Shown: piece by piece, positions 5,301 to 25,200 of the stretch | Layout: each line of letters begins with the position of its first letter | How positions within the stretch are numbered: position 1 is the stretch's first letter | Source of the DNA: Octopus sinensis | Taxonomy: Eukaryota | Length of the DNA stretch: 64,000 bases | NCBI RefSeq assembly: GCF_006345805.1 | Contig: NC_042997.1 | Location: 209,436,001 to 209,500,000 of the forward strand | Direction of reading: 5' to 3' | Program-made: the position numbers

Positions 5301-8300
5301 CAACCATCTAGAGCAGTACTTCTTTAACCATTTTATTTTTCGTAGTGTCCTACCATCTTTTTAATTTGTTGTTATGCTTAGCTTCCATCGATGTGGCGAG
5401 TGAGGTACCACAAATACGGTGGATGAGGATAATTTATAAACTTTACTCTAAAAAATGGATTGTATAAGCTTTTAACAGTGAAATGATAAAAAAGAAATTT
5501 ATAAGACAAGACTTGTAAATTTACAGGCGCAGGAGTGGCTGTGTGGTAAGTAGCTTGCTTCCCAACTACATGGTTCCGGGTTCAGTCCCACTGCGTAAAG
5601 TGTCTTTTATCATAGCCTCGGGCCGACCAAAGCCTTGTGAGTAGATTTGGTAGACGGAAACTGAAAGAAGCCTGTTGTATATATGTATATATATATATAT
5701 GTGTGTGTATATGCTTGTGTGTCTGTGTTTGTCCTCCCACCATCGCTTGACAACCGATGCTGGTGTGTTTACGTCCCCGTAACTTAGCGGTTCGGCAAAA
5801 AGAGACCGATTCAATAAGTACTAGGCTTACAAAGAATAAGTCCTGGAGTCAATTTGCTTGACTATAGGTGGTGCTCCAGCATGGCCACAGTCAAATGACT
5901 GAAACAAGTAAAAGAATAAAAGAAATTGTTTGTAATTAATCATGCATTATCTTATAGCTTTGAGATGTCTGTGATGTGATTGTTTATTCATAGAATGACA
6001 TTGTAGGGTAGGTGTGAAAGGCTGGATCTGGCTGGACTGAACATAAAACAGGTGGAATATTTGGGCGTGTTTGACCGTCAAATGGCCAAAACATTTGAAT
6101 GTCAAATGGTCAAAACAGGTGCAGGCATGGCTACATGGTTGAAAAGCTTCCTTTCCAATCACACAGTTCTGGGTTCTGTTTTATTGCACAACACCTTGAG
6201 CAAGTATCTTCTATTATAGCCCTGGGCCAACTGACTGAGGCACCAGTCGTAAAATAATGTCTCAATAACATAATAGTTTATAGGAAAAACAGACATAAAA
6301 ATGAAAGGAAAAAGAAAGGACCAGAAATAAGAGGAATTCCTTGTTGTACCAAGTGGTTTATAAAAGACCAAGGTGAACGAAACTCAAACAGAACCAAACT
6401 GAGATTGAACTAACTTTCTGCCTTACTGAAACATGTAACTAATCCTACATAGTTGATGGTATTGTTCAGAGTCTTCACTAACCTGGGATAAAGACAGCTT
6501 CTTAGCAGCATTGACAGTATTCTTAAGAAGCATGGCAACAGCAGTAGGGCCGACACCCCCAGGAACTGGTGTAATCCATGATGCAACTGTCTGAGCTTCT
6601 TCGAAACAGACGTCGCCAACAAGATGATCTTTCTTGTTACTATCTGAAATAGAAATTGAAAAGAAAAAAAGAAAAAAGGTATGATAAATATCATTTCACC
6701 TGTCTCATGAAGAGTGTAACCTCTGATAAGCAAACTTTTGGAACAGCTTTCACTGCCTCACAAAGAAGAAAAATGGTCAAGGAATTGGGTGCTTGTTTCC
6801 TTCTGTGAAAGAATTCTTTTGTCTAAAAGATATTTTTATATTTTTGCACACCACTGGTGTGCCGCCATGTAAAAAAGCACCTGTGCTGATGCCGTGTAAT
6901 TAGTACCTTTGCTGAAGACATAAAAATTCACACCTGAGCTGGTGTTATGTATAAAGCACCCAGTACACTCTGTATAGTGGTTGGCGTTAGGAAAGACATC
7001 CATTTGTAGAAACCTTGTTAAAGCAGACAATGGAGTTTGGTGCAGTTCTTAGCCTTACAAGCTCCTGTCCAAGCGAACAACCCATGCCAGCATGGAAAGC
7101 AAATGTTAAGTGATGATGATGATGATGATTTTCTTTGATTCACAAAAACCAGGATTTAACAGGTCTGTAGGTTCAAAGCAGATTTCAATTTCATATGTAT
7201 GTCATCATCATCCTTTTGCATCACCGGTCTGGAACCCCTATCTTGCCCAGGACATCAATCGTCTGGAAGCTGTTCAGCGACGTGCAACCAAAAGAATACC
7301 CTCCATCAGGCATTTGCCATATCCTGAACGCCTTACTTCCCTGGGCATGGACACATTGAAACTCCGACGTCTGGCAGCTGACTTGGCAGACACCCATAAA
7401 ATTATTCACCATCTTACAAACAATAACTCTGAGCACCTTTTCAAACTCCACCCATCTAACACCCGTGGATATATTTACAAAGTAAGAAAACAGCACAGCT
7501 CCCATGACTTCAGGAAACATTTTTTCACGCTGAGAGTTGCTGAAGCGTGGAACAAACTGCCGGCATCGGTTGTTAGTTGTCGGAGCACTGCATCCTTCAA
7601 AACTTCCATGCTTCCTGAGATTCGCCAACACTACACTTGATTTTCTCCCCTCCATACGCACACAAGCATGTTCACTTTCCAGACATTTCTACATTACTGC
7701 ATGTACTTTATATGCACTTTCTGACAAGTTGTGGTGCACCTGAGCACTGTATACAATAATTTCATTATTATCTTATTTTTATTATTATCCATTCTTCCAT
7801 GATTTGTATTATATCTCCTCCATTCTTCTTTACAATGTCTTGGTTATATATTCTGTATCTTGTATGAACTCCAATGAAACAAAATCAGGATTTATCTGTC
7901 AAGTGGAAATACCATTTAATTGTTTATCTTAAGCAATTCCTTTGGTTCCCTATCATTCGATGTGGTTAGCCATATCTGGATTATATCAGAGTGCTAATAA
8001 GGCACTTGTCCGGATTCCAAATTCATATTCCTTTTACATTACACACACACATTCTGATGAAGATGGCAAAGGCACCATTCAACTCAAAGCTATTGTACGT
8101 CACCCATAGCACCATGCAGTCGGACTGAGACCAGAACCACATGGTTGATAAATACAGTTCTTATACACACACAGCTATGCCAGAAGAAAGTAAATATCTT
8201 TAACGAAAGAAGATGGACTTACCGAGAACAGAATTGGTACCACAATCTATGACAATGGCACCAGGCTTTATCCAATCCCCTGGCACCATTTGGGACTTTC

Positions 8301-22200: not shown

Positions 22201-25200
22201 TGCTTCCTTCCAAACGGCCACCCATGAATGGTTCAAAGAGAACATTAACCCTGGCCTAGAATTGGGTGCTGAGGGGGGTATGTGAAGGTGAGGGGCATGC
22301 ACTCTTACCCTTCATTCTGACTCTTTACTAAATCATAAAGCATCAAGTGGCGACACCTATCACCATAAACTGTTTCAAGTGGCGACATCTAGTGACATAA
22401 ACTATCTCAAGTTTAACAACTTCAAGAGCCCCACCACTACCACCACCACCAGCAGCAAAAAAAACGATAGCTACCCTCTTTCCTACTACTAACAACAATG
22501 AGCTCTGAGACAACAACAGAGACTATGTGGTTTGCAAGACATGCTAGAAATAGCAACCAAATCTTCTTTAAATCTACCATCTTGGAAAAGAAGTGCACAT
22601 CGGCAAATATCTTCTTAGATAACCTGCAGAAGGCAGGATGGTCTCAGCTGGAATGGCTTCAATCATGAGCCTACCAATCTATGTTGTTCACCCCTTACTC
22701 TACCACAATGCATTGTGGGTATTGTAATTGGTTAAACCTGGCTGTCCTGGGTTAAGCAATCTTGCTGACAATGTAACAACAGTGTTTAAGAGATAATCCT
22801 CTTTTTCAAAGCAGCTTTAACAACATTTCAAACACTAATCAATATTGATGGAGATATTGCAGAACATCTTGCACTTACTGACACAAGATTTCACCACCTT
22901 CCTGCATTCAGTGCTGAATTCAATACCTCTACCATTCATGGACAAGCTTATATAAAAAAGAAAAAAAAAATGTCACTGCCCATTATCATCATCATCATCA
23001 TCGTTGTCGTTTAACGTCCGCTTTCCATGCTAGCATGGGTCGGACGGTTTGACTGAGGGCTGGTAAAACAGAAGGCTGCACCAGGCTCCAGTCTTGATCT
23101 GGCAGAGTTTTTACAGCTGGATGTCCTTCCTAATGCCAAGCACTCCGAGAGTGTAGTAGGTGCTTTTATGTGCCACTGGTACAGGGTCAGTCAGGCGGTA
23201 CTGGCAATGACCTCGCTCGAATCTTTTTACACATGCCACCAGCACAGGTGCCAGTAAGGCGACGTTGGTAACGATCATGCTCGAATGGTGCCCTTCTACG
23301 TGCCACCGGCACAGAAGCCAGTTGGCTGCTCTGACAACGATCACACTCAGATGGTGCTCTTGGCACCCTACTAGCACGGGCACAAGTGCCAGTAAGGCAG
23401 TGCCACATAAAAAGCACCCAGTACACTCTGTAAGGTGGTTGGTGTTAGGAAGGGCATCTAACCACAGAATCCATGCCAAAGCAGACGAAAAAGAGCCAGG
23501 TGCAGCTCACCACCTCCTGTCAAGCCATCTAACCCATGCCAGCATAGAAAAATGGATGTATGATGATGATGATGGCCCTTTAATGTTCACTTTTCTATCT
23601 TCTTGTGTTTTATTCTGTGTACTATACCTGGGTACCCCACAGTGGAGTCACAAAGCTACCTGGATTACATTGGAGTACCCCATCCTGGAGTCATACTGAC
23701 TATTATATCAGGGTACCTTACAGAGAAGGCACAACACTGACTGCATTATCTGCTGTTGAGTGGCTTAGTGGTTAGGGTGTTCATGAGTTCGATTCCCGGT
23801 AGTGTGTTGCACCCTTGAGGCTATGGAGAAGACACTTGCTCAAGGTGACATGCAGTGGGACTGAACCCGGAACCATGTGGTCGATAAGCAAGCTACTTAC
23901 CACACAGCCACTCCTGCGCCTCATAAAATTTGGAAAAAAAGATTTTGTAAGGGATTATAACACCATCCATGTACAAGAAACTCCCATATTTTTTAATTTA
24001 ATTTTTGATGAAAAAGGGTTCCTTATACACGTTAAAATATGGTAATTATTTTTTATGTGTGTTTGTATGTGGGACGGAAACTACACACACACACACACAC
24101 ACACACAACTACAAATTAAGGAGAAGGATAAACTTGTCAATTGGCAGAAGGTAAAAAGCAGATTTAGATAACTATGTGTGTGTGTGTGTCCCTGTGAGTG
24201 TGTGTGTCCTTGTGCACGTGTGTATATATGTGTGAATGTATACCAGTGTGTTTATATATACATATAGTGTTTAATGTTTACGGTGAGGGTTTGCTCATGG
24301 TGACAAAAGTTTATTTCAAAAGTTACCGATTCCATAACAAGGAAAACTACAGCTCAAAGAAAAGTTGCTGAAGACGGTCGGAGGGATTCCTTCCCTGCTT
24401 CCTTTCTTCTCTCCTTACCTTAATGAGAGCCAAAGATGGTTGGAAACTTTCGGATTCTTTCTTTAACTGTTTAATGCTTTCTCGAAGATCTTTCTTGATC
24501 TCACTGCAAACAGAAGAAAATCTCTCTTTGAAACTGAAGGAAATGCTTCCAAACATTGAAGATCTTAACCATTATTAATGGGAATTTATATATAAGCTTT
24601 ACTGGCAGTTTTCTATGTTAAAACAACAACAATAACACACACACACACACACACTTTCTCTTTGTCACTCTCTCTCTCTCACACACACACTTTCTCTTTG
24701 TCACTCTCTCTCTCTCACACACACACACTTTCTCTTTGTCACTCTCTCTCTCTCACACACACACATATTCCCACATGCTTAATCACATATTCATTCACTC
24801 TCATACAGACCCCACCACCACCACCACAAACTCATTATCCCTCCCCCCCACAAGCACCCTCAAACCCTAAGTGGACTGTCCACTTCATTTACAACCAATT
24901 ACACCTCGTTTAGCCATTCCATCGTCCACAATAAGGCAATCACTCATCAACCGATATCTTAATTACGAATATTTTCATTGGTTCATACATCAATACATCC
25001 TTTATTGGCTTACGTGTATCAATACAATCTCTATTGATCTCTAGATATCAATAAAGTCTTTATTGCTTTATGGCTATAAATTCTTCCATTAGTGTTTGTT
25101 CATTTGTGTTTTTTCTATTCCTTCCATGCCAACACACAATGCGTCCACTCTATCACCGATCCACGCTTCCATTGTCGTCTTGACTAATAACTTTACTAAT

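Follow-up and report, generated by a model that had tools for sequence, protein, structure and literature searches.

Replacements at invariant positions in the dehydrogenase/cyclohydrolase domain of cephalopod MTHFD1

The window analysed here is a stretch of 64,000 nucleotides from Octopus sinensis (assembly GCF_006345805.1, contig NC_042997.1, positions 209,436,001 to 209,500,000), and it contains on the minus strand the 5' third of a large gene encoding MTHFD1, the cytosolic protein in which an N-terminal dehydrogenase/cyclohydrolase (D/C) domain is followed by a synthetase domain. The structure of this gene is intact and, judged by its sequence, it is the molluscan ortholog of MTHFD1. Its D/C domain carries replacements at positions that are invariant, or nearly so, in other animal proteins, and these rare replacements are confined to this one domain of the protein. 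Several of them fall on residues that contact nicotinamide adenine dinucleotide phosphate (NADP), and we lean towards the reading that the NADP-dependent dehydrogenase activity has been lost or crippled in octopods. The distribution of the changes looks like a relaxed constraint on cofactor binding that set in after the folate side of the pocket had already changed.

Gene structure and replaced residues

Ten exons, between 1843 and 55523, lie within the window and encode residues 1-311 of a public protein, P0001, while the remainder of the synthetase (about 620 residues) lies past the window start. The window sequence contains no N, all nine introns are of the GT-AG type, and the codon phases are consistent, as established by reading the junctions and by a scripted check. 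Single-exon searches covered exons 7, 3, 6 and 9, and that with exon 7 led to P0001 (one match among three candidates), the "C-1-tetrahydrofolate synthase, cytoplasmic-like" of Octopus vulgaris, which has 929 residues and the Pfam domains PF00763, PF02882 and PF01268. The in-frame translation of every exon matches P0001 exactly and where it is expected to, and P0001 stood in wherever a full-length sequence was needed. The intact introns and phases and the agreement with P0001 bear out the view of the first-pass annotation that this is not a pseudogene. An artefact of the gene model was likewise rejected, since the splice sites and phases are intact and the same residue states occur in Argonauta and partly in a third protein, P0005. 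The interval 6483-24503, in which the unusual domain was initially noticed, corresponds exactly to exons 2-9, with exon 1 and the linker exon 10 outside it. A 31-kb intron 1 separates exon 1 from exon 2 and, in alignment with canonical cytosolic orthologs, exon 1 is without an N-terminal extension. The exons and the motifs of interest are as follows.

Exon 1, coding part: 55489..55523, minus strand; start codon at 55523-55521, 11 codons and 2 bases
Exon 2: 24419..24503, minus strand; P0001 residues 12/13-40; ends in LIK before VG, K standing for canonical Q42
Exon 3: 18976..19086, minus strand; residues 41-77; shortened S49-Y52 segment (codons at about 19068-19060) and K56 (19050-19048)
Exon 4: 18420..18479, minus strand; residues 78-97; retained Q100 at its end
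Exon 5: 12368..12444, minus strand; residues 98-122 and a split codon; retained D125 in KDVDG
Exon 6: 10774..10871, minus strand; residues 124-155; SSTA in place of PCTP at 10816-10805
Exon 7: 9269..9405, minus strand; residues 157-201; dinucleotide-binding loop
GHNKLTT (canonical GRSKIVG), in exon 7: 9370-9350, minus strand
H173 codon CAT and N174 codon AAT, in exon 7: 9367-9365 and 9364-9362, minus strand
CHPD (canonical CHS, then K or R), in exon 7: 9301-9290, minus strand
Exon 8: 8223..8334, minus strand; residues 202-238; IDCG kept, T at I238 and N at A215
Exon 9: 6483..6643, minus strand; residues 240-292; VGDV and TPVPGGVGP kept; the D/C domain ends here
GPTA (canonical GPMT), in exon 9: T and A codons at 6545-6540, minus strand
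Exon 10: 1843..1901, minus strand; residues 293-311; linker into the synthetase domain

Every substitution listed in the first-pass annotation was present in exon-level alignments to the human MTHFD1 structures 1A4I and 6ECQ. Exon 7 aligned to human residues 163-202 with the changes R173H, S174N, I176L, V177T, G178T and S197P, and exon 9 aligned to residues 252-294 with M278T and T279A. In exon 3, aligned by HMMER to human residues 44-79, there is a one-residue gap and an H at the place of Y52, with K56 kept; MAFFT places the gap at Y52 itself, and neither S49 nor Y52 survives in either alignment. The YXXXK motif formed by Y52 and K56 is broken, its lysine being kept and its tyrosine replaced or deleted. 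Exon 6, the most divergent of the exons, has a one-residue deletion upstream of SSTA and gave no match to human MTHFD1 up to an E value of 10; the family member that it matches best among solved structures was MTHFD2L, which likewise lacks the PCTP cysteine. The top match of this exon, to coronavirus spike S2 constructs (E 0.0013), was set aside as a chance similarity in which no stretch passes alone. Beyond the earlier list, K198D, W187C, V177T, P149A and I238T were also found. At the NADP contacts R173, S174, H196 and S197 the octopus protein thus reads H, N, H and P, with G172 kept and T at G178. The alignments also confirmed the retention of K56, Q100, D125, IDCG, VGDV and TPVPGGVGP.

Rarity, descent and copy number

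The rarity of these changes was assessed among proteins between 510 and 1635 residues long. With the octopus D/C domain as query, 1551 proteins were found among 4254 candidates, and the best 120 of the 1551 were used; 115 of these were aligned, 112 of them outside the cephalopod clade. The five left out were two tandem-D/C proteins of plants that have no synthetase, two proteins of partial coverage and one fragment. With the results of a second search, using a clam query, the set grew to 211 trifunctional-length sequences, 208 of them outside the cephalopod clade. Columns at least 98% invariant across the 112 proteins were treated as near-invariant (94 in the D/C domain and 209 in the synthetase). 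The D/C columns are changed at 23 of 94 positions in Octopus, 23 of 94 in Argonauta hians and 16 of 94 in P0005, against a median of 0 and a maximum of 4 in the other 112 proteins. In the synthetase the corresponding figures for the three are 2, 3 and 3 of 209. An AT-rich composition bias was therefore rejected as the cause, since the synthetase half of the same gene is nearly unchanged.

The substitutions are not commonplace in invertebrate orthologs, and the refutation that the first-pass annotation foresaw on this ground does not hold. R173, S174, G178, P149, T148, H196 and T279 are invariant in all 208 other animal proteins of trifunctional length, and C147 and I238 are each found in 207 of the 208. 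Position 197 is S in 205 and T in the remaining 3, Y52 is present in 204 proteins, replaced by F in 3 and opposite a gap in 1, and at position 198 there are 161 proteins with K, 40 with R, 6 with H, 1 with Q and none with D, the residue of both octopods. The single gap at Y52, in P0275 of Mya arenaria, was rejected as a real exception, being an alternative model of the same gene as P0271. Both proteins come from one contig and are identical over the D/C domain and the linker shown, apart from two differences: P0275 is without 14 residues around S49-Y52 and has 8 additional residues elsewhere, which makes it an annotation variant and no second degenerate gene.

As to the sites affected, 13 NADP-binding residues and 7 residues key for substrate binding and catalysis are given for the human D/C domain in PMC3368264. 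R173, S174, I176, S197 and I238 are among the 13, in line with the claim that the replacements fall on NADP contacts. Nine of the listed NADP-site residues are invariant in the 112 proteins (at least 111 of 112), and of these nine, five are changed in Octopus (R173H, S174N, I176L, S197P and I238T), six in Argonauta, where H196Y adds to the octopus positions, and four in P0005 (T148A, S174D, I176L and I238T). Among six invariant substrate or catalytic residues Y52 alone is lost, in all three lineages, so that the octopus keeps five of the six. The tyrosine at this position stacks on the p-aminobenzoate ring (PMC3368264), and its equivalent in MTHFD2L is Tyr98 (PMC9796130). The I238T replacement need not matter by itself, because Leishmania has Thr at this position (PMC3368264).

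The loss of Y52, C147S, a replaced P149, I176L, a replaced I238, a replaced M278 and T279A are common to all three proteins, and R173H, G178T, V177T, S197P, K198D and a replaced W187 (W187C or W187A) are specific to octopods. Changes at the NADP site also differ by lineage, with R173H, S197P and G178T in octopods and H196Y in Argonauta, and T148A and S174D in P0005. Such a use of different NADP-site residues in two daughter lineages is the pattern expected of relaxed constraint on NADP binding.

The descent of the gene was examined in a tree of the synthetase domain (49 rows) built by a quick search, with support from the Shimodaira-Hasegawa-like approximate likelihood ratio test (SH-aLRT) only. 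P0005 joins Octopus and Argonauta (SH-aLRT 100), and bivalves and gastropods together form the sister group of this cephalopod clade (SH-aLRT 92), so that the phylogeny with molluscan and vertebrate MTHFD1 and an MTHFD1L-like protein, proposed earlier as a check, identifies the cephalopod gene as an MTHFD1 ortholog. P0121, which is extended at its N-terminus and whose D/C domain is heavily degenerate, is taken here, by its features, to be of the MTHFD1L type; its sister group in the tree consists of five vertebrate MTHFD1 proteins (SH-aLRT 97). The cephalopod change is independent of MTHFD1L, because the cephalopods group with molluscs and P0121 groups with vertebrate MTHFD1. MTHFD1L is described as vertebrate-specific, having arisen by duplication in vertebrates, with non-vertebrate metazoans having MTHFD1 and MTHFD2 (PMC11064299).

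Branch lengths, in substitutions per column, are as follows.

Cephalopod stem: D/C 0.77, synthetase 0.13
Octopod stem: D/C 0.57, synthetase 0.08
P0005 branch: D/C 0.64, synthetase 0.055
Octopus tip: D/C 0.06, synthetase 0.042
Argonauta tip: D/C 0.16, synthetase 0.022

In the three cephalopod pairs D/C divergence amounts to 3.2-4.2 times the synthetase divergence, compared with a median of 1.43 and a maximum of 2.20 in 820 canonical pairs. P0005 has, in addition, an N-terminal extension, residues 14-41 of which resemble the octopus 5' leader at 55524-55608 on the minus strand. The match is weak (tblastn E 0.97, in two pieces and different frames), and the extension is probably, by this resemblance, a read-through of the leader and not a targeting peptide.

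The gene looks like a single-copy cephalopod ortholog of cytosolic MTHFD1. Among the best 120 of the 1551 proteins found with the octopus D/C query, two were cephalopod-named, both with the derived domain, and the best 120 of the clam canonical D/C search (8000 candidates), all at least 61% identical, included no cephalopod-named protein; the named matches listed there range from molluscs to cnidarians and vertebrates. Of 363 proteins compared in the synthetase, just P0002, from Argonauta, and P0005 are more than 80% identical to the octopus, the next standing at 79.6%. No second canonical trifunctional protein of cephalopods was thus present among the matches listed, in the length range covered, which speaks against the first-pass suggestion of a subfunctionalised paralog beside a canonical MTHFD1. 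Stand-alone MTHFD2-type proteins, any octopus MTHFD2 included, fall outside this range. Canonical exons hidden in the introns of the window were sought by tblastn, the queries being residues 1-340 of four canonical proteins and of P0005, and none were found. All matches with E below 1 lie on the ten exons, apart from those of P0005 to the 5' leader and one at 33524-33640 (E 0.28), where the weaker match of P0010 is interrupted by a stop.

The introns contain a variety of repeats and mobile elements. A 535-codon open frame in intron 1 (38121-39725, plus strand), with an RVT_1 match (113 bits) followed by a PHD/C1-like zinc finger, is a retroelement of the long interspersed nuclear element (LINE) type, and a zinc-finger fragment related to it lies in intron 9 (4317-4820, minus strand). 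Intron 4 carries a degenerate tandem array (about 15600-18100) with a 73-bp period scored at 16805-17233 and open frames of up to 203 codons on both strands, one of which was without a Pfam match; it looks like a minisatellite and not a gene. At 1907-2437 an AAT/GAT-rich unit of 235 bp is repeated 2.3 times with 96% matches, ending at most 6 bases from the acceptor of exon 10. Arrays with periods of 63-66 bp occur at 34651-34991 and 40133-40587, and similar arrays recur across the introns on both strands. Moreover, a dispersed short element is found throughout the introns, where similar peptide strings appear in many spurious open frames.

Function of the altered domain

The degree of degeneration can be judged from the Pfam scores of the D/C domain, which in the octopus is matched over full length by both models.

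Octopus (P0001): PF02882 174 bits, PF00763 93 bits, PF01268 849 bits, all over the cut-offs
Argonauta: PF02882 164 bits, PF00763 93 bits
P0005: PF02882 189 bits, PF00763 96 bits
Oyster, limpet and lungfish: PF02882 223-237 bits, PF00763 112-130 bits
MTHFD1L-like P0121: PF02882 45 bits, PF00763 61 bits

The synthetase (FTHFS) model scores 838-861 bits for Octopus, Argonauta, P0005, the canonical proteins, P0121 and a further protein, P0122, and 803 bits for another, P0125. On this evidence the octopus D/C domain is altered but is no decaying relic, and to call it degenerate in the manner of MTHFD1L overstates the case. The parallel with MTHFD1L drawn in the first-pass annotation holds insofar as residues needed for the dehydrogenase have been lost, independently, and fails in degree, the octopus domain being far milder in its changes (174 and 93 bits versus 45 and 61) and keeping five of the six substrate or catalytic residues.

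Comparison with known relatives places the octopus protein closest in architecture to canonical MTHFD1 (human D/C structures 1A4I, 1DIB and 6ECQ), with which it shares the three Pfam domains in one chain and, in alignment, the same start without a presequence. Its synthetase is on average 74% identical to those of 41 canonical proteins, whereas its D/C domain is about 48% identical to canonical D/C domains, compared with 64-67% between clam and cnidarian. Where canonical proteins have GRSKIVG, CHS followed by K or R, PCTP and GPMT, the octopus has GHNKLTT, CHPD, SSTA and GPTA, and the tyrosine of YXXXK is gone. Like MTHFD1L, the octopus protein combines a conserved synthetase with a D/C-like domain in which residues needed by a dehydrogenase have been lost and evolution is accelerated relative to the synthetase. 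MTHFD1L, however, arose from a duplication (PMC11064299), whereas no duplicate was found for the octopus among trifunctional-length proteins. The octopus protein is also without the N-terminal extension of P0121 and keeps Q100, VGDV and PGGVGP, all three of which P0121 has lost. The NAD-using MTHFD2 and MTHFD2L (5TC4 and 7QEI) and yeast MTD1 resemble the octopus protein in having a cofactor pocket unlike that of MTHFD1. At the position of S197, MTHFD2L has Arg247 (PMC9796130). Unlike the octopus protein, however, neither MTHFD2 nor MTHFD2L has lost the GRS...G loop or the stacking tyrosine (the latter from the same source). These two enzymes are mitochondrial and have no synthetase domain, in contrast to P0001, where a full FTHFS domain follows the linker. 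A stand-alone protein of the FolD/MTHFD2 type (about 300 residues) was ruled out on the same grounds, as exon 10 continues into the linker and the complete FTHFS domain. P0122 and P0125 are like the octopus in joining a conserved synthetase (838 and 803 bits) to a degenerate D/C domain; that domain is far more degenerate than in the octopus (42 and 39 bits in P0122; 35 bits and no C-terminal-domain match in P0125), and both proteins lie on long, unresolved branches and are not cephalopod-like. From these two sequences it seems that the D/C half has been lost on several occasions.

The reading towards which we lean can be set out as follows. The synthetase, conserved as in other animals, would presumably still make 10-formyl-tetrahydrofolate (10-formyl-THF) from formate, ATP and THF, and the N-terminal domain would have acquired, in this lineage, a burst of replacements at positions that are invariant elsewhere. 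The common ancestor of octopods and P0005 would have lost the folate-stacking Y52 and parts of PCTP and GPMT. Later, in octopods, the loop at the 2'-phosphate and pyrophosphate of NADP would have been rebuilt (R173H, S174N, V177T, G178T, S197P and K198D). Under this proposal the octopod domain would not carry out NADP-dependent dehydrogenation of methylene-THF at a useful rate, and purifying selection, though weakened, would maintain its fold. The role so preserved would be either folate binding with cyclohydrolase chemistry or a purely structural one, two alternatives that appear about equally likely if the dehydrogenase has indeed been lost. Cytosolic methylene-THF would then come from serine via serine hydroxymethyltransferase (SHMT) and not from formate, and the rewired one-carbon pathway suggested in the first-pass annotation stays hypothetical. 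What is known of R173 is relevant here: Arabidopsis R175Q is hypomorphic, that arginine being needed for dehydrogenase and not for cyclohydrolase activity (PMC4909953), and in a patient with severe combined immunodeficiency R173C in the human NADP site was accompanied by a 90% decrease in formate-to-methionine flux (PMC4817835). The further step, in which octopods or all coleoids would be without any NADP-linked cytosolic methylene-THF dehydrogenase and their MTHFD1 would act as a synthetase, perhaps also a cyclohydrolase, is put forward tentatively.

Several observations weigh against a lost dehydrogenase. The D/C domains of Octopus and Argonauta are still 82.5% identical, and therefore the domain is not free of constraint. 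Octopus, Argonauta and P0005, three fast-evolving lineages, all retain K56, Q100, D125, G273, G276, VGDV and PGGVGP, which argues that some folate chemistry survives. Moreover, P0005 keeps R173, H196, S197 and G178, and NADP binding may persist in its lineage; H173 of octopods could still contact a phosphate, and K198D could represent a switch of cofactor instead of a loss. If cytosolic D/C activity is needed, the apparent lack of a canonical paralog would argue that the domain still works.

Rescue by RNA editing was considered and rejected as a general explanation. The codons of H173 (CAT) and N174 (AAT), at 9362-9367 on the minus strand, are each a single A-to-G change away from R (CGT) and S (AGT), and these two alone among 22 substituted invariant positions could be restored to the canonical residue in this way, as could none of four further positions. 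Restorative editing has been discussed for coleoids, and both codons fit, by sequence, the definition of 'potential restorative editing sites' given in PMC6881472. Editing could thus restore no more than R at position 173 and S at position 174, and the folding of exon 7 together with its flanks is not better than that of shuffled sequences (z -1.29).

A rival reading, which we consider unlikely, is that the domain is a working dehydrogenase/cyclohydrolase with a remodelled cofactor pocket, e.g., towards NAD+. None of the three cephalopod sequences has lost K56, Q100, D125 or the folate-loop glycines, the gene is single-copy as far as seen, and the Pfam matches are full-length (174 and 93 bits). 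Octopods have, in addition, lost all ligands of the 2'-phosphate bar H196, K/R198 has become D, and W187C or W187A beside G178T may be compensatory. An Asp where the second Rossmann strand ends counts as a classical signature of NAD preference, but this rule is general to Rossmann folds and not specific to the MTHFD1 family. Against a directed switch, G178 and V177 of the dinucleotide loop, needed for NAD and NADP alike, are both T, Y52 is lost, and the NADP-site changes are unlike between octopods and P0005, pointing to relaxation; the D/C domain also keeps evolving, relative to the synthetase, 2-3 times as fast as in any of the 820 canonical pairs. Were the pocket so remodelled, the cytosolic pathway would be oxidative, as with yeast MTD1 or mitochondrial MTHFD2.

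The opposite extreme, a wholly inert D/C scaffold in a monofunctional synthetase, has a precedent in vertebrate MTHFD1L, with its divergent FolD-like N-terminus (PMC11064299 and PMC9796130), and fits both the loss of Y52 and NADP contacts and the raised D/C rate that persists within the cephalopod crown. We regard it as quite unlikely, since P0121 has lost Q100, VGDV and PGGVGP (45 and 61 bits) where the octopus keeps them all (174 and 93 bits), and the retention of K56, Q100 and D125 in three long-branch lineages would be unexpected in an inert domain. The wider pathway enters with the idea that a canonical cytosolic D/C enzyme, either a second MTHFD1 or one of the FolD/MTHFD2 type, is encoded elsewhere in cephalopod genomes and that the present copy is its subfunctionalised partner. 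Such an arrangement, which concerns pathway context and could stand alongside any other reading, strikes us as improbable. Non-vertebrate metazoans carry MTHFD2 besides MTHFD1, and the range of lengths covered is one in which bifunctional proteins could not appear; yet MTHFD2 is mitochondrial in the animals studied (both points from PMC11064299), and the two best-120 sets, the synthetase identities and the introns of the window gave the results described above, with two derived cephalopod proteins and no canonical one. A lost or crippled dehydrogenase in octopods, with the fold retained, remains the reading we prefer.

Implications for cephalopod one-carbon metabolism

A search of open-access text, by titles and abstract openings, found no literature on an altered cephalopod MTHFD1, the matching papers dealing with fish genomes and chitosan, and the main text of a 2024 survey of the gene family (PMC11064299) contains no occurrence of cephalopod, mollus- or octopus. 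The state suggested by the sequences would be milder than that of MTHFD1L and centred on the cofactor site, and would amount to a loss in the style of MTHFD1L in the single-copy cytosolic enzyme of a clade. If the dehydrogenase is indeed lost, degeneration of this kind would have affected the cytosolic enzyme itself across a whole animal clade that kept no canonical duplicate.

Single substitutions of R173 are enough to cause disease in mammals and genome-wide hypomethylation in plants (PMC4817835 and PMC4909953), and a rebuilt NADP pocket, tolerated and conserved in the sole detectable MTHFD1 of a clade, represents a natural experiment. It bears on the extent to which cytosolic one-carbon flux can be rerouted via SHMT, on the loss of one activity by multi-domain enzymes without gene duplication, and on the residues truly required for cyclohydrolase as opposed to dehydrogenase chemistry. 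The transferred name "C-1-tetrahydrofolate synthase, cytoplasmic-like" may thus overstate the function of the cephalopod protein. Without a cytosolic dehydrogenase, formate carbon could enter purines and not thymidylate or methionine, and cephalopods may therefore run a folate one-carbon metabolism unlike that of other animals.

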